The notes beneath the pieces were generated by a model, which saw only the letters and a list, made by a program, of their open reading frames with translations, was not told the origin of the DNA and did not search any database. Positions 1 through 61,912 of a stretch of DNA of 64,000 bases are shown piece after piece. This DNA is from Sphyrna mokarran (Eukaryota). The stretch lies in NCBI GenBank assembly GCA_024679065.1, contig JAGIQG010000040.1, positions 10,850,001 to 10,914,000 on the forward strand, read 5' to 3'. The position numbers and the translations under genes were made by a program. Numbering within the stretch: the first letter of the stretch is position 1; each line of letters starts with the position of its first letter.

Positions 1-14
1 ATAGAGACAATTGT

Positions 15-160
15 TACACAATCAGCCTAATAACCACATTTTTGGGGATGTGGGAGGGAAACGGAGCACCCGGAGGAAACCCACGCAACATGGGGAGGAA
101 CGTCGCAAACTTCCCGCAGACACAGGCCCAAATCCATGTGTCAGCACAGCAACAGCGATA
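15..160 (-). mobile_element. V-SINE (HE1-like) fragment
   Basis: Reverse complement of the V-SINE core (gtttgc..ttcctccccatgttgcgtgggtttcctccgggtgctccgtt). Confidence 0.7.
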
Positions 161-399
161 GTCTCTGAGCTGTCATGTTGCCCATCAGATGGTCCAGTTT
201 AAGCATACACTGACAACATGAAGCACTAGGCAACTCCTGAAGCAACCTCCAAGAGCAGCTCTCGCACGACATGCCGCATGCATGCCCCTTGTTGGTCAAC
301 AAGGTGGACCGAATTGTCTGCGGAAACAAATAAGACTTAATTAAACATGCTAAAAAAAACTAAGACATTCCCGAGACAAAACTAAAAGATAGTCTACTA

Positions 400-668
400 C
401 TATTTGGTCCTCCCGATATTCAAACAGTCCTGCTATATCCCTCTAACTGCAGACCGCTCATGTGGCTGTCCAAGAGACCCTTAAACAACCCTAGCGTGCC
501 TGCTCCCACCACCTTACTCGGCAGTGCATTCCACAGCCCCACTACCCTTTGTGTGAAAAACTGGCCTCTAATATTCGTCTTATACATAGCCCCCCTCACC
601 CTGAGCCCGTGACCCCTCGTTCTATCCATTTCTAATGGTGGAAAAAACTTACCACCATTTACTCTATC
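400..668 (-). mobile_element. CR1 LINE 3' fragment
   Basis: ORF2 C-terminus RTRGHGLRV..FFTQRVVGLWNALP. Confidence 0.85.
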
Positions 669-669
669 G

Positions 670-1862
670 AACGATGTGACGGAAGGTAGAGCTGTAGACA
701 TTGTATACATGGATTTTAGTAATACGTTTGACAAGGTTTCCCATGGTAGGCTCATGAAGAATATACGGAGGTGTTGGATTGAAGGAAATTTGGCCAATTG
801 AATAGGAGACTGGCTGTATCATAGAAGACAGAGGGTGGTGGTGGAGGGTAAAATTTCAAACTGGAGGCCAGTTACCAGTGGTGTAACACAGGGGATATTG
901 CTGGGTCCTCTGTTTTTCTCTGATTTTTATCAATGACTTGGAAGAAGGGGCTCAAGAGTGGGTTAGTAAATTTGCTGACAACACCAAAATTGTGTAGTTG
1001 TGGATGAAATGGAGGGCTCTTGCAGGCTGAAAAGAGGCATTGAGAGGATGCAGAGCTGGGCTGAAAAGTGGCAGATGGAGTTTAAACCTGATAAGTGTGA
1101 GGTGATTCATTTTGGTAGGACAAACTGGAATGCGGATTACAGGTCAACGGCAGGGTTCTATGGAATGTGGAGGAACAGAGAGATCTTGGGACTCTTACCT
1201 ACAGATCATTGAGGGTTGCCACTCAAATGAATAGAGCTATAAAGAAGGCTTACAATGTGTTAGCTTCATTAACGGGGGGTTTGAGTTTAAGAGCCATGGG
1301 GTTGTGCTGCAACTATACCGGACTTTGTTGAGACGACATTTGAGTATTGTGTGCAGTTCTTGTCACCTCATTATAAGAATGATGTGGAAATATTGGAGAG
1401 AGTGCCGCGGAAATGTACCAGGATGCTGCCTGGTTTGGAGGGTAGGTCTTATGAGCAAAGGTTGAGGGAGCTGGGGCTTTTCTCTTTGGAGTGGAGGAGT
1501 TGACTTATTGAAGGTTTATAAGATGATGAGAGGGATTGATAGAGTGGACGTGCAGAGAATACTTCCTCGCGTCAATGAAACGTGTTACTAGAGTGCATAA
1601 ATATAAGGTTCAAATATGGTGGGAGATATAGGAGGGATGTCTGAGGTAGATTCTTTACTCAGAGAATGAATGGAATAGGCTGCCTGCTATGATTGTGCAG
1701 TCGGATACTTTAGGAACTTTCAAGAAGTTATTGGATAGGCACATGGAGCACTCCAGAATTAAAGGGAGGAAACAGCTTGACCTTGGGCTTGGACATAGAA
1801 CGGCACAAGATTGAGGGCCAAAAGGCCTGTACTGTGCTGTAATGTTCTTTGTTTCTATGTTT
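670..1862 (+). mobile_element. 5'-truncated CR1 LINE, degenerate RT
   Basis: VDIVYMDFS, SKFADNTK, WAEKWQMEF motifs; ends in tgttct tail. Confidence 0.9.
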
Positions 1863-1933
1863 GCCAATGGTGCAATGTGGAGATACCAAACAATGAGTGA
1901 ATCTGTTTGTTCACCGGCCTGTAACTAAGGTGC

Positions 1934-2940
1934 ATAGAACATAGAACATAGAACATTACAGCACAGAACAGGCCCTTCGGCCTTCGATGTTGCGCAGACC
2001 AATTATGAAAAAAGCAATGACCCTCCAAACTAAACCATTCCCTTCTCTTCCATAAACTTATCAACTAACCTCTTAAACTCCACCAAACTTGGCGCATCTA
2101 CAACTGCCGCAGGCAGGGCATTCCACTCCCTAACCACCCTCTGGGTAAAGAACCTACCTCTGATATCCGTCATATAACTATCACCCCTTAATTTAAAGCT
2201 GTGTCCCCTCGTGCTAGCTTTCTCCATCCTAGGAAAAAGGCTATCACTGTCCACCCTCTCTAAACCTCTAATCATCTTATATGTTTCGATTAGGTCCCCT
2301 CTTAGCCCCCTCCTTTCTAACGAAAACAACCTCAAATCCCTCAGCCTCTCTTCATAAGACCTGCCCTCCATACCAGGCAACATCCTGGTAAACCTCCTCT
2401 GTACCCTCTCCAATGCCTCCACATCTTTCTTTATAATGTGGGGACCAGAACTGCACACAATACTCCAAGTGCGGCCGCACTAGAGTTTTGTACAGTTGCA
2501 ACATGACGTTGCGGCTCCGAAATTCACTCCCTCTACCAATAAAAGCCAAGACTCCATATGCCTTCCTAACAACCTTCTCGACCTGACTGCCTACTTTCAG
2601 GGATCTATGCACATACACACCAAGATCCCTCTGTTCATCTATACTACTAAGAATCCTACCATTTGCCCTATACTCTACACATTTATTATTTCTGCCCTAG
2701 TGCATTACCTCACACTTTTCCACATTAAACTCCATTTGCCACCTCTCGGCCCAGCTCTGCAACTTGTCCAAGTCTCTCTGCAAACTATAACACCCCTCTT
2801 CCTATCTACCACTCCACCGACTTTAGTGTCATCTGCAAATTTACTAATCCATCCTTCAATACCCTCATCCAGATCATTTATAAAAATTACAAACAGCAGG
2901 TGCCCCAAAACAGACCCCTGAGGTACACCACTTGTCACCA
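1934..2940 (-). mobile_element. 5'-truncated CR1 LINE (young subfamily)
   Basis: [26 protein letters not shown]; (ATAGAAC)n tail at 1934-1955. Confidence 0.92.
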
Positions 2941-2957
2941 CTTGTGCAGGTTCTAAC

Positions 2958-2994
2958 TTAATTATTCCTCTGGAGACGCTCACTCAGAATAAAT
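2958..2994 (+). promoter_or_regulatory. GPCR-1 proximal promoter: homeodomain TAATTA + EBF/O-E-like CCTCTGGAGA + TATA-like ATAAAT
   Basis: ttaattattcctctggagacg matches 18/21 to the same position upstream of GPCR-4 (41916-41936); ATAAAT at 2989-2994. Confidence 0.55.
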
Positions 2995-3057
2995 GTGGGA
3001 CACAATGAAACCACCGTCATGCTCAGATTTAAACTTCATTTCACTTTCTAGGAGAGG

Positions 3058-3127
3058 ATGCATGGACCAGCGAAAGGTATCTTCTTCGCCATTTCTTATC
3101 CCATTCTCGCGGCCATTGGTGTTCCTG
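3058..3127 (+). CDS. GPR139-like GPCR gene 1, coding exon 1
   Basis: MHGPAKGIFFAISYPILAAIGVP then phase-1 donor G|gtaggt; supplies the first part of TM1. Confidence 0.85.
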
Positions 3128-4339
3128 GTAGGTGAAAGATCCCAAATCATTCTCATGATTTGAACTGTATGGCATTGCATAAACATTAACATTTTATTGT
3201 TGAACATTCAATTTTATTCCAATGTAGTAAAATGCGATCCAGTGTTTTCAGTATTGTGCAGAATAAAGTGTATAATGTGGCCTGTATCTCATCCACTAGT
3301 ATGCACAGTCTCAGAAAAATAAGTTATTACAATCTATTAATTCAATTAGATGCATTGACATAGAGCTTACATTCAGTGGTTGCATGAAACGATGTTGCGA
3401 CCTCCAGCAGTTTATAATTGTTGATCTGTAGTGAGGTGGCAATGGGCTGTCCACATTGTTACTGAGGTTTTAAAAATTAAGAATTAATTATTGAAACTTT
3501 TTGAAAAAAGTTGAGGGGGTTATGCATATGCATTTTGTCTTGTGTTAGTAAGACTGGTAAATTTGCAGTAATTATATTTTTAATCACTAGGTGTATGCAT
3601 GTAGATATGGCAAGACGAATATATCTTGTCCATTTCCATCTTTTATTTGAGAAGGCGATGAGGCGTTGTTTCTTCAGACACTCGGATAAGTAGAATGGGG
3701 ACACTTCACAGAGCTTTACAAATTAACTTTATACTGACAGACAGAATGACTTAGAATTTTTCAACGAATTCATTTTCTGAAGATCGCCCTGAAGAGCAAA
3801 GGGAACGTTTAGTCTTTGAAAGAAGGGGTAGCAGAGGTTAGAGTCTTAGCAGGAAAGGCAAATTGAAAATCAGGGGCATTGAAGTCCACACTCGGAGATA
3901 TAGTGTGACCTCAGTTAGTTGTAGCATGTTACCAACATCTGGAACGGCGAGATATTGGAGGGGTTTAAAATTTGAAGGGCGAGATTATAAAAACAGACGC
4001 TGCCTGAAGAAGGGCTGATAGGGCTGATGGATGGATGGGATTAGTACGAAGAAGAATATTGACAGTAAATTTTGGGAGAATCTGAAATTTGATAGTTATC
4101 TGAGGGGATCAACTCAGTGACCAGAGCGCAGAGATAAAATTAGGACTGATTGCCCCTAATCTAAAATAACTTTAATCCAGTTTTGAATTTAGTGCCATTG
4201 CCGAAACTTTGCATTCACTGGAGTCTAGACTTGGCAAAGTGAAGGATGAGGTCGTTCTCAGTAACTGATTGGATAGCGCAGCAGTTGGTGTTTACAGTCC
4301 TCTCAGTAACACATCTCTCTGTCTCTTTCTATCTCACAG

Positions 4340-5229
4340 CCAACTTGGTGACCATCGTAATCTTATCTCGAGGACGGTGCGGACTGTCACGGTGCATGAC
4401 CTACTATCTTATCGCGATAGCATTGACTGATTTCCTTGTCATCATCACTGCCGTAATCCTCAACCGGATTGGCCGCATCTACTTTCAGAACAGCGTCCTG
4501 TCAACCACCCCGGCATGTACATTCAGCAATCTGCTGGTCTATTTTACGCGGGATTCATCTGTCTGGTTGACAGTGGCTTTCACCATCGACCGTTTTGTGG
4601 CCATCTGCTGCCAGAGGCTGAAGACCAGATACTGCACCGAGAAAACAGCATTGCTGGTTATAGGAATAGTTTGCATCCTGAGCTGTGTCAGGAATGTCCC
4701 TTTCTACTTCACTTACGAGCCCTTGTACACCCTGGACGCGGTTCCCTGGTTCTGTGTTTTTAAGTCCAGGTATTACACGCTGCCCGCCTGGCAGGCATTT
4801 GGCTGGCTGGACAATATCTTAACTCCGTTTCTCCCGTTCCTCCTCATCCTGCTTCTTAATGCTCTGACCATAAAACACATCTTAGCGGCCAGCAGAGCTC
4901 GCAGGAGACTCCGGGGCACGGAGAGTCACGGAGATCCAGAGATGGCCAACCGCAAGAGGTCCATCATCCTGCTCTTCGCCATCGCCCTCAGCTTCCTCCT
5001 CCTCTGGGTCACCTATGTCATATACTTCCTCTATGTGTGGATTACAGGTGTGGGCTACCGCACCAGCTTGGATTTCAAAGACCCACGGTACATCTTTCAG
5101 GAAACAGGAAACTTGCTTCAGCTGGTCAGTTCCTGCAACAACGTCTTCATCTACGCAGTCACCCAAACCAAATTCCGAGAGGACCTGAAGAAGGTTCTGC
5201 TATGCCCCTTCACCAGGCTCACTGGGTAA
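4340..5229 (+). CDS. GPR139-like GPCR gene 1, coding exon 2 (spliced protein about 319 aa)
   Basis: Acceptor tctcacag|cc; open frame with TM1-TM7, DRF, ECL2 PWFC, TM7 NNVFIY. Confidence 0.92.
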
Positions 5230-10999: not shown

Positions 11000-11391
11000 T
11001 CATTGACAGGAATTAACAGTGTCCATCAGTGCAAGGGAAATGTTCACAAAACTGGGTTTACCGCTGGATTTGTCAACTGTTCCGTTGATGATCTTCAAGG
11101 GGATGGCTTCATGTCCCACCACACAGGAGTAAGAAGCGCCGCTGGACCATTCCTCTGCTGCAATGGATAACAGGCTGTACATGAAGAAGGAATTATTGCC
11201 GTTCTCCGCCACCACCTCGGTGTTCCCGTAGTTCCCGGGATTCACCGGCTTGTCGTTGATGGTCCACTTGACGAAGATCTCTCGGGGGGAGAAACGTCTC
11301 ACTAAGCAGCTGAGGGAGACGAATCTCTGAGCGGAGATTTCTTCTGCCGAGGGCAGGAGGACAGAGACGAACGGTTCCCGTGGATTTGGAT
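11000..11391 (-). CDS. IGHM: IgM heavy chain CH4 exon with secretory tailpiece (orphan, probably a truncated pseudogene cluster)
   Basis: [65 protein letters not shown]; internal donor G|GTAAA after 11062; AATAAA 10967-10972. Confidence 0.92.
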
Positions 11392-11491
11392 CTGCAGAAA
11401 ATGTACAATTAATGTCAATAAACTGGAGAATTCTGGAGACAATGAAACTGCCAGTTAGATATCAGGGAAATATGCTGCAATTTCAATTTTA

Positions 11492-14670: not shown

Positions 14671-15268
14671 ACTCTAAAGCCTGTATAAAAAATGGTGAAT
14701 GATTTTAGCGCTTAATTAATAACCTCACGCATTTATTGACGGAGGTGAATGGCAGAAAGTTCAATGAAGAATTGTATCCTTACAGTAATATTTAGGGGCA
14801 TATCCTGATATAAAACAAATAGATTTATTTTAAAGCTTGAAGGAAACTATGTCGAAACCAACAATATTTGTACATTCAGAGGCACATTCAAGTCTCAACA
14901 GTTAAACATTAACATTGATCTTAAAAGAAAAAATATACCATGATAATTCCAATGCAGGTAAGATAGTCTGTTGGTTATTCGGTGCAGATTCAATGGGTCA
15001 TATGACCTTCTTCTGCACTGCCATGTCTGCCTAACCATTATTTCCAACTTTCCATACTTCCTTGAATCTCAACACCCCATCTAGACTGTAAATTTTGGAT
15101 ATAGAAAGTGTTGGATTGAAGGGGGTTAAGTGAAGTTGTTTGTTTAGTGACTGTAATTGATGTGAATCTCCATGGACCCTGTTATTGTGCCTGGAGGGAT
15201 TTCCCTCTTCTATTAATAGAGGATTCCATTCAATTGTCCCATTGAGTGAGCGGGAGAGCAACAGCTCC

Positions 15269-15275
15269 TATATAA
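15269..15275 (+). promoter_or_regulatory. TATA box of GPCR-2
   Basis: TATATAA about 85 nt before ATG 15356; caattg-tcccattgag just upstream. Confidence 0.45.
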
Positions 15276-15316: not shown

Positions 15317-15442
15317 GATCAGAATCTGGGAGCAGTGGATTGGAGTCTTCCAACAATGGATCAGGAACTGACAGCAATGCACCAGAAAGTCCCAACAATG
15401 GATCAGAAACTGGGAGCAATCGATTGGAATCTTCCAACCAAG
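15317..15442 (+). repeat. 6 x 21-bp minisatellite spanning the start of GPCR-2
   Basis: gatcagaatctgggagcagtg / gattggagtcttccaacaatg / gatcaggaactgacagcaatg / caccagaaagtcccaacaatg / gatcagaaactgggagcaatc / gattggaatcttccaaccaag. Confidence 0.8.
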
Positions 15443-15578
15443 GACAAAAGTTTATTCCATTGGATTCCTATGTTTACCTCAGATGATTGGAGGATACCAT
15501 CTGCTTATCGGATTGAAGGTCTACTGAAAGCGATTCAGTACGTTTACTATCCCATCCTGGCGATTATTGGCGTTCCGG
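15356..15578 (+). CDS. GPR139-like GPCR gene 2, coding exon 1
   Basis: MDQELTAM..IQYVYYPILAIIGVP, phase-1 donor G|gtaagt; start ATG uncertain (several in frame). Confidence 0.82.
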
Positions 15579-16099
15579 GTAAGTCCTTGGCTGGAATTGG
15601 ACCAGTCGACTGACACTGGAATTGGAGCAGGCAAGGGTCAGAGCATGGGAAGGTCTGTGGTAGGATTTTGCAGATTTCGGAAGAGTGAGGCTGTAAAGTC
15701 CCGTCCCCTGTGTCCAGTTCCTAATTCTAGAAATGCTGCTTAACTGTATTGATTTCCTTGTCATTGACTGTACTAGTTTTCTGCTCTTGTTTCTGTTGAG
15801 TCCCTATATCCAGTTATGAATTCTTTCAGCCACTGACAATTGCCTATGGGCAATGATGTTTTCTGTGTGCTGTGACTATCCATAGATTTGTGACCTAACA
15901 CTAATCCTTCGTGAGACAAAGATTCAGGCAGAATCCTTTTTACCCTCTACATGTAACACCAGTTCACTGCTAATTGCCCACCCAGTCTCCAGGCTGCAGA
16001 ATCCATTTTAATGATCATGTGTGTACAGTAAGATCTCAAAAGAGAACACATTTCGTATTGAAATTTATTCATCAATGCCACAAGTATGCAAACATTAAT

Positions 16100-16355
16100 A
16101 CTGCTGTGAGTTGCGATCAAAATCCCCGAGTCGCCACACTGCGTCACATGTTCAGGTACACTGAGGGAGAATTTAGCACGGCCAATACATCAAATCAGCA
16201 CAACTTTACGATTTTTGGAGAAAACCGGAGCACCTGGAGGAAACCCACACAGACACCGGGAGAACAAATAGACTCTGCACAGACAGTAGCCAAGCCTGAA
16301 ATTGAACCATGGAGCCTAGTGCTATGAGGCAACAATGCTATCCCCTTTACCACCA
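16100..16355 (-). mobile_element. V-SINE (HE1-like)
   Basis: aaaccggagcacctggaggaaacccacacagacac core plus tRNA-derived head. Confidence 0.75.
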
Positions 16356-17249
16356 CAACTTTATCTTAGAGTCACAGAAACACAAACATACATATATTAA
16401 TAGAGACATTGACTGGTAGAAACAATCAGATTTAGACACTTCCTACCACTCACATACAAATTCAAGGACCAAAAGCGTTGTAAGACTCCAGAATAATGCA
16501 CACATAGGAGCACTCATCAGGTACTCTGCTGCTCACACACAACACGCCCTGACACACACCCATGCATATACGCCCACACACACACGCCCATACACACACA
16601 CATTCACACACACACACACTCACACAGATAGATGCATAGGAGTAATGGTGTTAATGGCTAGCTGTCATCGAAAAACACGTATTTTTGGACGTGTTGTGGA
16701 TGTTGATGAACTGTAGTGGATCTAGGCAATCTGGGAAGCTGGAACTGATTCATTCCATGACTAACCTTTTGTTGCATTTCATAATATCGAATGTCGGAGT
16801 CACAGGATGATAGTCATTAGGCAGCCTGCTTGGCTTTTCTTTTGGTGCTGACCTCTGTTTTGAGTTTTTACCTGGTGCACACATTAGCAACCTTCCTGCC
16901 AAGAGAGGATTCATGGAGATGTAAAGATAATAGAGATTTTGTATTTCAAGGCACCAGGATCTCCCTCTAACAACTGTTAGTCTTGTCCAGAGGAAAGGGT
17001 CAAACCAACCCTTTGTTTGGTACCAGCTTTGTTGTGGGAGATGTCAGTGAACTGTCTGAGAGAGAACAGATTACCAACTACAGGACTCCACCCGGATCTT
17101 CTGTTAGGATTTACTGCCTCATCTTTCTTACCCTCCAAATCTTCCACGGGTAGAGAGGTTATTTACCTGTAGCTGAGTAAAGGACAATGTTGAGCACTCC
17201 CTGGAAAGCTCTCTCCCTAATGTATACTTTTGTGTCACTATCGAGGAAC

Positions 17250-17390
17250 AGGGCAATGGCACTGCCCTGCTGACTCACAGCATCAGGGATCTGGGTTCAG
17301 TTCCTGTCTTGGGTCACTGTCTGTGTTGCCTTTGTACATTCTCTTTGTGTCTGTACAGGTTTGCTCCCATTTCCTCTCACACTCCAAAAG
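17250..17390 (+). mobile_element. V-SINE fragment
   Basis: ctcacagcatcagggatctgggttcagttcc..gtcactgtctgtgt. Confidence 0.6.
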
Positions 17391-17517
17391 AGGCACGAGA
17401 TTTTAAAAAATCAAACTGTTTTGTGTGTTTTCTTTATTTCAACCCAAGGTCAGTCTAAATGGTAATTTGTTCCACTGAATCATATCTAATTTTATTCTGT
17501 TTTTCCCTTCCTGACAG

Positions 17518-18416
17518 TGAACATAACCACAATTGTGACACTGACGAGCAGAAACTGTGGGCTGTCCAAATGTGTCACTCGTTACCTGGTGGCCATGTCA
17601 GTGGGGGATCTGCTGGTCGTTATCTTCGACCTGATATTGAGGCACATTCCCATTGTTTATCATGAACAGTTTTATTTCCTGCTGTCTCTCCCCGTGTGTA
17701 ACATCCACGCCGTCCTGCTTTACGCGGCCACTGACTGTTCTGTCTGGTTCACCGTCACTTTCACCTTCGATCGATTTGTGGCCATTTGCTGCCCCAAGCT
17801 GAAAAGTAAATATTGCACTGAGAAATCGGCGGCTGTGGTTCTGGGAACAGTGACGGTGCTGAGCTGTTTAAAGAACATTATCTGGTATTTTATGTTAGTA
17901 AATACATATCGGCTGCAGAACCTCCCCTGGTTTTGTTATTTCACAATCGATGTTTTGGATTCTCTGGTCTGGGGAGCAATCGAGTTCCTCCACTACATTC
18001 TAAACCCATGTGTCCCATTCGTCCTGATTCTTTTGCTCAATGCTCTCACCGTCAGACACATTTTAGTGAGCAGCAGAGCCCGCAGGAGACTCTGGGCTCA
18101 CAGCAGGGGAGAGAATTCCAGAGACCCAGAGATGGAGAATCGAAGGAAATCCATCATTTTACTGTTTGTTATCTCAGTCAATTTCATCCTCTTATGGTCA
18201 ACATTCATGATTTATTCAGTATGGAATCGAATGTATGATATGGGCTATCGTTTAACATTAGATTTTTATGTTATGGAATTGGGCTTCATGCTGCAACTCA
18301 CAAGTTGTTGTACAAATACTGCTATTTATGCTGTGACACAGACTCACTTCAGGCAGCAGCTAAAAAATCTATTGAAATATCCCTTTACTGTAATTTTTCA
18401 TCTCAATAAAGCCTGA
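17518..18416 (+). CDS. GPR139-like GPCR gene 2, coding exon 2
   Basis: Acceptor cctgacag|tg; open frame, DRF, PWFC, CCTNTAIY. Confidence 0.92.
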
Positions 18417-58598: not shown

Positions 58599-59189
58599 TC
58601 ACTCGTGAACTTGTTGGTGTCTCAGCAGCTGGGGTGAAACTCTGAATCCCTTTCCACACTGAGAGTAGGTGAATGGCCTCTCCCCACTGTGAATTTGCTG
58701 GTGTCTCTGCAGGATGGATGCTTGACTGAATCCCTTTCCATGCTGAAAGCAGGTGAACAGCCTCTCCCCGGTGTGAATTCGCTGGTGTATCTGCAAGTTG
58801 GATGACCAAGTGAATCTCTTCCCACACTGAGAGCAGGTGAACGGTCTCTCCCCAGTGTGAATTCGCTGGTGTATCTGCAAGTTGAATGACCGAGTGAATC
58901 TCTTCCCACACTGAGAGCAGGTGAACAGCCTCTCCCCAGTGTGAATTCGCTGGTGCTTCTGCAGGCTGGATGACCAAATGAATCCCTCCCCACACTGTGA
59001 ACAGGTGAACGGCTTCTCCCCACTGTGAACAAGCTTGTGTAATTGCAGGTGCTGGAACCGAATGAATCCCTTCCCACACTGAGAACAAGTGAATGGCCTT
59101 TCCCCAGTGTGGCTGCGCAGATGAGCATCCAGCAGAGAGGGTATACTGTATCTCTTTCCACAGTCAGCACATTTCCATGGTTTCTCCAT
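58599..59189 (-). CDS. C2H2 zinc-finger protein (gastrula ZF/XlCGF-like), 7 fingers, 5 intact
   Basis: MEKPWKC start, HTGERPF linkers; likely exon acceptor at 59512; no KRAB seen. Confidence 0.85.
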   Translation of the reverse strand: MEKPWKCADCGKRYSIPSLLDAHLRSHTGERPFTCSQCGKGFIRFQHLQLHKLVHSGEKPFTCSQCGEGFIWSSSLQKHQRIHTGERLFTCSQCGKRFTRSFNLQIHQRIHTGERPFTCSQCGKRFTWSSNLQIHQRIHTGERLFTCFQHGKGFSQASILQRHQQIHSGERPFTYSQCGKGFRVSPQLLRHQQVHE

Positions 59190-60737
59190 GGGGCAGGTGT
59201 CCTTGTCTCTCACTTGGGTGGACAATCAGTTGAAGCCTCACCCACACACACAACATGTGTCTAGTCTCTCCCTGCTGTGAATGGTGTGGTATTTATTCAG
59301 TGTAACTGGTCAAAGCTCTTCAGTCAGTGCACTGGAACACTCTCACTTGAGTGTGGCAGAGTGTTGGTGCTTTTCCAGTCACACTGATGTTTAAAATCTT
59401 TTCAAATCTTCCAGATTCAACGGCCAATGATATTCAGGTGCTAAGGAATATGACTCTGCCAGATCTAGATGTGATGGTTGAGATTTCAGCTTGCGATTCC
59501 TCTTTCAATATCCTGTAAAGTAAGTTGACACAAGTCATCAATGTTAGCACAGGATTGAAATTCAGAACAAACAATTGTACTTTGTATGGAATTTTTTTGC
59601 TCTCCCATTCCTCAAAAGCTGTAAATCCCCATCCCACATTCTCACTCCAATCTCACTCTGCTGTATCTAATATTCGCCCTCCCAATTCTCCTGAAGGTGC
59701 TGATTGACAGATCCACGCTCAATGCTTCCTGTCCTGGACAGAGAGCTGAAAATCCCCATGACGCTGCCAGATCGATCTATACACATACGACTGGAATAAA
59801 AATGTGTGGAATGTAAGACTGGATTCACTTTCTTTTTCTTCGGTTGCTGCAAATCCCCAGTTTCCCCCAGAATGAGAAAAGAAGTGGAAAGGGGGAAACA
59901 CTGACTTCCTCCCAGATGTTGCACGGAGGAGCAAATTTCATTCTGAAGCTCACTGGCCAATTTCCGCATTATGATTCTCTCAAAGACATTGACATCCTTT
60001 GGTCCCTCAGCTTGATACATTTATTTGTCTGGCTAAAAGGATGGTCTCTTTCCTAATGTTCACAATTAAAGAGCTGGTTTCCCTCAGAGATGGCTGACAT
60101 TTAAATTATTAAAATAATAAATTATTATAGGACAGAGATATGCCAAGTGTTGTTATACTATGGATCTGACATTATTTATGGTTCTGTAACAAAGTCCATT
60201 TATTCTTTCTTGTCTTGTAATGAGGCAATGTAGTTCTGTAATATATTTCCATTCAGAGTCATTACAGCACAGAAGGAATCCATTCAGTAACTCAAGTCCA
60301 TGCTGACTTCTGTCGAACAATCCAGTCAATCCCATTCCCCTTCTTCGTTCCCTTTCCCCTGCAAGTTTATTTCCTACGTGTGCCCATCTCATTTCTGAAA
60401 TATATTAAAGGGGACAGTATACTAATATAGAACAGCGACATGTCTGATATTGTTATATGGTAGAGATTAGAGATATTATTTATGGCTCGGTATTAAAATG
60501 CACTTATCTTGTTCTGTAACACTGGATTGGAACTAATTATATATTTGCACAAATCCCTTCCCTCAGACAATTGTTAATATCTGGCTTTGTCTGCCATGGA
60601 GCATTGAATATCTTCAAGGATAACTTAAGACTGTTTTTGAATGACAAGGGAGTCAAGACTTATTGGAACAGGCTGGAAAATGGAGACAAAGCTCAGATGA
60701 GGAAGGATTTCTTCACTCAAGGATGTGATGAAGTTTT

Positions 60738-61912
60738 AGAACATAGAACATTACAGCGCAGTACAGGCCCTTCGGCCCTCAATGCTGTGCCGACCAATGG
60801 AGAAAAAGCAATAACCCTCTAACATAAACCATTCCATTTTCATCCATAAACCTATCCAGTGACCACTTAAACACCCCCAAACTTGGCGCATCTACAACTG
60901 CTGCAGGCAGGGCATTCCATGCCCTCACCACCTCTGGGTAAAGAACCTATCTCTGACATCCGTCCTATAACTACCACCCCTTAATTTAAAGCTATGTCCC
61001 CTTGTGCTAATCTTCTCCATCCGAGGAAAAAGGCGATCACTGTCCACCCTGTCTAATCCTCTGATCATCTTATATACCACAATAAGGTCACCGCTTAGCC
61101 ACCTTCTCTCCAATGAAAATAACCTCAAATCCCTCAGCCGTTCCTCATAAGACCTTCCCTCCATACCAGGCAACATCCTGGTAAACCTCCTCTGCACCCT
61201 CTCCAATGCTTCCACAATGTACACAATACTCCAAGTGTGGCCACACCAGAGTTTTGTACAGTTGCAACTCTGAAATTCAATCCCCCTACCAATAAAAGCC
61301 AAGACTCCGTATGCCTTCTTAACAACCTTATCAACTTGATTGCCAACTTTCAGGGATCTATGCACATGTACACCAAGATCCCTCTGTTCATCAACACTAT
61401 TAAGAGTCCTACCATTAGCCCTATACTCTACACATTTGTTATTCCTGCCAAAGTGAATTACATCACACTTTTCCACATTAAACTCCATTTGCCACCTCTC
61501 GGCCCAGCTCTGCAACTTGTCCAAGTCTCTCTGCAAAATATAACACCCCTCTTCACTATCTACCACTCCACCGACTTTAGTGTCATCTGCAAATTTACTA
61601 ATCCATCCTTCAATACCCTCATCCAGATCATTTATAAAAATTACAAACAGCAGGGGCCCCAAAACAGATCCCTGAGGTACACCACTTGTCACCGAACTCC
61701 ATGATGAATAATTCCCATCAACCACCACCCTCTGTCTTCTATCAGCTAGCCAATTCCTATTCCAATTGGCTAAATCACCCTCAATCCCATACATCTGCAT
61801 TTTCTGCAGAAGCCTTCCATGGGGAACCTTATCGAACACCTTATTAAAGTCCATATATACCATGTCAACTGCCTTACCCTTATCCATCTCTTTGGTCACC
61901 TTTTCAAAAAAC
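60738..61912 (-). mobile_element. 5'-truncated young CR1 LINE
   Basis: 324-aa RT ORF ([29 protein letters not shown]); AGAACAT tail; same subfamily as 1934-2940. Confidence 0.93.

Follow-up and report, generated by a model that had tools for sequence, protein, structure and literature searches.

Four genes for G-protein-coupled receptors (GPCRs) of class A in the window, by which we mean the whole 64,000-nt stretch of Sphyrna mokarran DNA analysed here, share an ordered upstream element of three blocks, A-B-C, lying 64-220 bp before the ATG. Sequence comparison makes it very probable that this element is a conserved promoter of the receptor family. The element is larger and older than the sequence-only reading of the same DNA had it, and its three blocks have outlasted all other non-coding similarity between the genes.

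Receptor genes and upstream blocks

The four genes (G1 to G4, Table 1) each have two exons and lie within 41 kb. All frames are open, and the phase-1 intron interrupts G1, G2, G3 and G4 at an identical place. G3 and G4 are part of one recent inverted duplication (4,580 columns, 86.6%; exon 2 95.8% identical); as recent twins they were counted once, so that the number of independent upstream regions is three (G1, G2 and G3/G4). No further receptor gene or relic was found in the window by tblastn. The predicted structure of G4 is a 7TM model with a mean pLDDT of 84.7. A protein of Mustelus asterias shares 88% identity with exon 2 of G1, and the G1 N-terminus finds matches in many named homologues. 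In G2, a 42-bp tandem repeat (15317-15438, + strand) gives rise to a 14-residue N-terminal repeat; one to five units of this type, with N-glycosylation sequons, occur in many Heptranchias and Heterodontus homologues.

Table 1. Receptor genes, upstream blocks and the inserted LINE (positions within the window)
Feature	Position	Strand	Remarks
G1 receptor gene	3058..5229	+	coding exon 1 3058-3127, phase-1 intron, exon 2 4340-5229; frame open
G2 receptor gene	15356..18416	+	exon 1 15356-15578, exon 2 17518-18416
G3 receptor gene	27521..29250	-	exon 1 29250-29160, exon 2 28422-27521; recent inverted twin of G4
G4 receptor gene	42042..43791	+	exon 1 42042-42138, exon 2 42890-43791
G1 block A	1904..1931	+	about 1 kb from the other G1 blocks; 21/27 bases match the G4 block, one gap
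G1 block B	2958..2978	+	homeodomain-like hexamer 2959-2964, 2 bp, O/E-like 10-mer 2967-2976
G1 block C	2988..2995	+	ATAAAT (2989-2994), TATA-like, 1 mismatch to TATAWAWR
G2 block A	15136..15163	+	score 21 against G4; 0/1000 shuffles
G2 block B	15182..15199	+	degenerate; homologue of the motif, placed by alignment
G2 block C	15211..15219	+	AT-rich
G3 block A	29392..29419	-	aligned with G2 and G4
G3 blocks B and C	29338..29376	-	B 29356-29376, C 29338-29345
G4 block A	41873..41900	+	aligned with G2 and G3
G4 blocks B and C	41916..41954	+	B 41916-41936, C 41947-41954
LINE splitting the G1 promoter	1935..2943	-	young, 5'-truncated; 97.5% over 240 bp to its twin at 61454-61693

Block A is followed after 13-18 bp by block B, and block B after 12-13 bp by block C (the 13 bp of G1 presumes the LINE removed). 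Block A, the best-conserved piece of the element, is found in G1, G2, G3 and G4 and combines an invariant Forkhead-like TGTTTGTT core with a homeodomain-like second half. Block B stands 100-175 bp before the ATG, and the genes are not odorant receptors (ORs). Homeodomain-like and O/E-like sites precede the ATG in 4/4 genes, the O/E-like site being good only in G3/G4: against TCCCNNGGGA, which we take to be the EBF consensus, the O/E halves have 1 mismatch in G3/G4 and 3 mismatches each in G1 and G2. Block C was scored against TATAWAWR, our assumed TATA consensus, and the factor names used for the blocks all rest on such presumed consensus sequences. The GC content of the 300-bp upstream regions is 0.42 (mostly LINE), 0.44 and 0.35, with blocks of the window ranging over 0.35-0.47.

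The motif at 2958-2978 with ATAAAT at 2989-2994, as well as its copies at 41916-41953 (+ strand) and 29356-29376 (- strand), are present where the sequence-only reading had placed them, and the 18/21 identity it had given for the copies is correct. The site which it had named for G2 (15231-15246) is not homologous; alignment gives block B and then the AT-rich block C further upstream (Table 1). Its observation that nothing visibly aligns outside the motif holds for the introns, but not for the flanks, which share block A, nor for the N-terminal exons, which are weakly homologous. It had called the motif a conserved homeodomain plus O/E composite; a conserved cis-regulatory element is well supported, and the two halves are a fair reading, with the mismatches in the O/E halves of G1 and G2 counting against it. 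A further, better TATA-like site stands in G2 at 15269-15275 (+ strand), about 57 bp downstream of block C, and may be a newer start site.

G1 at first sight is without block A, because a LINE intervenes between A and B. The edge of the LINE falls 19 bp ahead of block B, and block A lies directly at the opposite LINE end. A 5-bp direct repeat (1930-1934 and 2944-2948) probably represents the target-site duplication of this LINE, and the ORF of the twin copy carries RVT_1. When the region was scanned, the score of the G1 block with the G4 block was reached by 1/2826 tiles, and that with the G2 block by 3/2826; an ungapped scan of positions 1-3000 misses 1904-1931 owing to the 1-bp gap. The segment 1862-1935 appears as a native island of the G1 promoter, about 70 bp long, caught between two LINEs of opposite orientation whose tails adjoin it. 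Since its block A has been displaced by the LINE, a weakened or silent G1 is predicted.

Several other features were observed in the window. A single immunoglobulin (Ig) heavy-chain constant exon with an open frame and a secretory tailpiece lies at 11000-11461 (- strand). No other Ig exon motif was found in the window and only one weak RSS-like site (20377), so the exon is probably an orphan. Each of two programs found 17 tRNA genes with many anticodons (12369-47600) among the receptor genes, several of them in local duplications, and a C2H2 zinc-finger array of 84-bp repeats, some fingers degenerate, is located at 58599-59225 (- strand). Such a neighbourhood of tRNA, GPCR and zinc-finger genes may resemble the mammalian extended MHC region.

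Conservation and age of the element

When the 300 bp upstream of the genes were scanned without bias, block B came out as the top ungapped match between G1 and G4, with a score of 15. This score was reached in 11/2000 and 4/1000 local shuffles, and in 1/4000 when the downstream 6-mer was also demanded, while homologous intron and 3'-flank controls gave scores of 8-12. By themselves these statistics are modest. With up to 3 mismatches allowed, a pattern built from the three copies of block B has just 3 matches in the window, the very sites from which it was made, so this uniqueness is circular by construction. The promoters were also left out one at a time. The four-part matrix made from two of them gave the one left out 50.0, 42.3 and 57.6 bits, where the maxima over the window were 25.6, 21.3 and 23.9 bits; 0/125,492 positions reached the scores of the held-out promoters, and 0/125,818 did so with blocks B and C alone, figures that are somewhat inflated because the block edges were set with all three copies in view. 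In addition, of the 5 occurrences of TGTTTGTTYA in the window, 4 belong to the receptor promoters; the fifth (51865, - strand) has, by eye, no B or C blocks after it.

Comparing 300 bp upstream of G1 and G2 directly, nothing shared was detected (score 8, reached by 986/1000 shuffles), and block B of G2 is weak, being joint 6th and listed 15th in the consensus scan. Generic patterns show no enrichment in the window, either for homeodomain plus O/E sites (7 against 10.2 expected) or for O/E sites (15 against 12.2 expected). Introns and 3' flanks of the genes show no alignment between the lineages. At fourfold sites the lineages are 45-60% different, and saturation is incomplete. The evidence base comprises three independent promoters at one locus. 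As for the nature of the blocks, a structured-RNA origin was rejected, since Rfam gives only tRNAs and none at the blocks, and a repeat origin was rejected, as no tandem repeat covers them. Further promoter copies were sought as translated traces in the N-terminal extensions of 388 proteins; a single match was found, inside a transmembrane helix, so that this yielded no additional copy.

A quick tree built from 52 chosen rows, none of them a true GPR139, placed G1 among genes of sharks and rays (SH-aLRT 99) and G2, G3 and G4 in a clade apart (100). By this tree the G1 and G2/G3/G4 lineages parted before sharks and rays did, so the element would be older than the shark-ray split, which is calibrated at 245-343 Mya in the available text of PMC12361510.

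The receptor family

In the profile scan, all 12 aligned members match 7tm_1 and 6 match Srx weakly. The OR, V1R and V2R models gave no match for these 12 members at E up to 0.1; TAARs, which have no model of their own in the scan, are absent from the 60 best solved matches. The nearest solved relative is GPR139 (1.4e-30, the next being 1e-18), and G1 alone matches it with an E of 5e-8. GPR139 is also first by fold, barely ahead of others, with about 20% identity to the human protein in the structure alignment, so the window genes are not GPR139 orthologues. Judged by profile and database comparison, the genes are a GPR139-related family that has expanded in cartilaginous fishes. The family amounts to at least 1,826 database clusters at 90% identity, the count of a second search after 1,452 in a first. 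Shark or ray names were seen by eye on 116 of the best 120 matches in the first search, the other 4 carrying no name, and about 58 of the best 120 in the second come from one species. All named members of the clade to which the window genes belong are cartilaginous fish. In many database models of the family the first exon is wrong or LINE-derived, a hint that the tissues behind the annotation supplied few transcripts in their support.

A sister receptor at about 30% identity (P0362, P0354, P0463, P0474), also automatically named GPR139, was found in teleosts, sturgeon, coelacanth, amphibians, turtles and sharks, apparently at low copy number; no mammal or bird occurs among its best 120 matches. 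One shark model of it is labelled TMEM183A, hinting at adjacency. From its taxon range we guess that it may be the GPR210 described in Rinne 2019 (PMC6504862, in the portion available).

The members are diversifying on their outer face. Between G3 and G4, the 105 outer-face codons show 21 replacement and 0 silent differences, against 7.5 and 9.5 in the other 194 codons (Fisher p 0.01, for segments drawn at standard helix landmarks after the G3/G4 differences were in view); the intron differs by 3.1%. Column entropy over 111 sequences (proteins under 420 residues from the second family search, and G4) is 1.36 bits on the outer face vs 0.57 bits elsewhere. An expanded and clustered family with a variable ligand face is what was found here; an olfactory receptor family in the functional sense would also be expressed sparsely in olfactory sensory neurons and respond to odorants.

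Our literature search, which left most subscription papers outside its range, found no paper on a GPR139-related shark or ray family or on its promoter, and the family is apparently uncharacterised. For GPR139/142, the part of a whale-shark paper's supplement available to us holds one orthogroup label, and the corresponding part of the supplement of a paper on the sole olfactory rosette, where gene naming may differ, nothing informative.

Possible function of the element

Block B is probably the middle block of an ancient proximal promoter of the GPR139-related family. A Forkhead factor and a homeodomain factor would sit on block A, a homeodomain factor of the Lhx2/Emx2 type and an EBF dimer would be bound side by side on block B, and TBP would occupy block C. 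The A-B-C set would then open every paralogue in one cell type, presumably a chemosensory neuron, of the olfactory epithelium in the first place, and paralogues with different outer faces would make up a ligand-detecting repertoire, coupling like class A GPCRs. The whole chain, from the ancient family promoter through to chemosensory neurons, comes close to being probable but falls short of it; it is argued from sequence and from analogy. Chemosensory neurons were judged the likeliest cell type on two grounds: homeodomain, O/E and TBP sites are in use at mouse OR promoters, and in its behaviour the family resembles a ligand-detecting repertoire. Olfactory expression of the family, taken for itself, is by this analogy plausible but tentative, and we infer it from the size of the family and the diversification of its outer face, not from the motif alone. 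According to the available parts of PMC10116579, nearly all catshark olfactory neurons are microvillous TRPC2/Go cells without OR expression, so an OR-type programme may not apply to them. As far as the accessible material of PMC11979771 goes, the 50 top genes of a catshark 'brain and olfactory epithelium' library include no GPCR, though sparse expression would hide such genes.

Unlikely in our view, even taken jointly, is that the same promoter serves the family in chemosensing or secretory epithelia outside the nose, such as taste or solitary chemosensory cells, enteroendocrine cells of the gut, gill or skin cells and ampullary organs, driven mainly by its Forkhead and homeodomain sites. An EBF-like site next to a homeodomain site, as in the element, is typical of neurons and speaks against such epithelia. 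On the other side, block A is the best-conserved piece, and a Forkhead site is not among the OR-promoter motifs in the available text of PMC12547500; moreover, several catshark OR, TAAR and ORA genes are reported to peak outside the nose (PMC11979771, accessible parts). No family member marks goblet or kidney cells in the portion of a bamboo-shark sheet available, which again disfavours this explanation. The possibility that these are immune receptors, run by an EBF1/FOXO B-cell or other leukocyte programme and diversifying against pathogen ligands, seems to us improbable, though several observations fit it. The pairing of Forkhead-like with EBF-like sites, present in the element, fits a B-cell programme; the Ig constant exon lies between G1 and G2; and diversification of the outer face is equally typical of immune receptors. 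However, the Ig exon is without partner exons in the window, and the only perfect octamers (24009 and 31131) lie outside the promoters. In the bamboo-shark immune-organ sheet of PMC11372145, in its available portion, ebf1a is a B-cell marker, but the 11 'coupled receptor' rows listed include no 'receptor 139/142' row, a weak negative in that low-level or sparse genes would escape such a marker sheet.

That the blocks are simply a core-promoter or 5'-UTR element, or partly neutral relics, with an accidental likeness to homeodomain and EBF sites, is quite improbable. The motifs are short and degenerate, the window has no more O/E-like 10-mers than chance would give, fourfold sites stop short of full saturation and block B of G2 is weak, all of which would suit an accident; but order and spacing are kept across three lineages, one split being older than sharks and rays, and nothing comparable has been kept in introns and flanks. 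Expression in the central nervous system, inherited from a GPR139-like ancestor, we consider very improbable. LIM-homeodomain and EBF factors are at work in habenula-type neurons. GPR139, the closest relative to have been characterised, is a highly conserved habenular brain receptor (PMC12208981, in the text available). Against this, neuromodulatory receptors of the brain are few and conserved, whereas the shark and ray family is large and fast-changing at its outer face, and sharks and bony fish also have the separate sister gene, which seems to be low-copy.

To return to the chemosensory reading, we put forward tentatively, as a possibility that would go further, that an olfactory receptor family of sharks and rays, their fifth, has been overlooked. 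It would consist of dozens to hundreds of GPR139-related genes in each genome, automatically labelled 'probable GPR139', and would have replaced a shrunken OR repertoire under a homeodomain/EBF promoter code, independently recruited and retained for over 245 million years. The catshark has 2 canonical ORs and about 34 V2Rs according to the accessible parts of PMC11979771 and PMC10116579, and one genome paper, in the part available, remarks on the paucity of GPCRs in cartilaginous fishes. Shark chemoreceptor repertoires have been reported as small despite large olfactory organs, and a diversifying family with an OR-like promoter would change that count. If true, it would be a second, independent use of the homeodomain/EBF code for a receptor repertoire. 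Should the tissue be other than the nose, the element would still be a compact handle on an uncharacterised gene family; should the family be expressed broadly and at a low level, the finding would be that of an ordinary conserved promoter.

Comparison with known systems

Among GPR139, GPR142 and the fish orphan GPR210, the characterised protein nearest by profile and fold is GPR139, and the window genes form a separate, much larger clade. With the OR, TAAR, V1R/ORA and V2R/OlfC families they have in common lineage-specific expansion, tandem clustering and a variable outer face, but they are of other origin within class A.

As to regulation, the sequence-only reading had started from the premise that adjacent homeodomain and O/E sites typify OR promoters and enhancers alike. 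This is overstated: in the available texts of PMC5608512, PMC12547500 and PMC11643329 the juxtaposed Lhx2/Ebf composite of the mouse is enriched in OR enhancers, not promoters; it is depleted from the latter, and its spacer is 1 bp (PMC5608512, PMC11643329). We took the composite pattern from the methods of PMC11643329, as far as they were available, reading the final '[4]' as four repeats. It has 64 exact matches in the window, with 0/4 shark sites among them; all four shark sites miss it by 2 positions, and 4,449/127,960 window positions do as well. The Greek-island composite (Monahan 2017; Iwata 2021) and the shark element have the same succession of TAATTR hexamer, pyrimidine run, one base and purine run, and the pyrimidine/purine register of the Greek-island Sfaktiria probe agrees by eye with the shark sites. 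They differ in that shark position 7 is T or G-flanked where a purine is required, and in that the shark O/E 10-mer stands 2 bp, not 1, from the homeodomain hexamer. Furthermore, the Greek-island composite belongs to intergenic enhancers of OR clusters, while the shark element is promoter-proximal, at non-OR genes. The shark element falls outside the composite class of the mouse, and its genes are no ORs.

Among the closest known systems are the mouse OR promoters, named for their homeodomain, O/E and TBP/MEF2A motifs. According to the available text of PMC12547500, homeodomain, O/E and TBP motifs occur in these promoters and are required at M71. There, as in the shark, homeodomain-like, O/E-like and TATA-like sites are found a short way upstream of compact, clustered GPCR genes of an expanded family. 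In contrast, the mouse promoters are without the fixed-spacing juxtaposition of homeodomain and O/E sites that the shark element has, and the latter carries an extra Forkhead-like block, at genes that are not ORs. An OR-type promoter would have a strongly AT-rich upstream region; the shark upstream regions (GC 35-44%) are not clearly AT-rich relative to the window. By analogy with these promoters, the shark element may work like an OR-type promoter.
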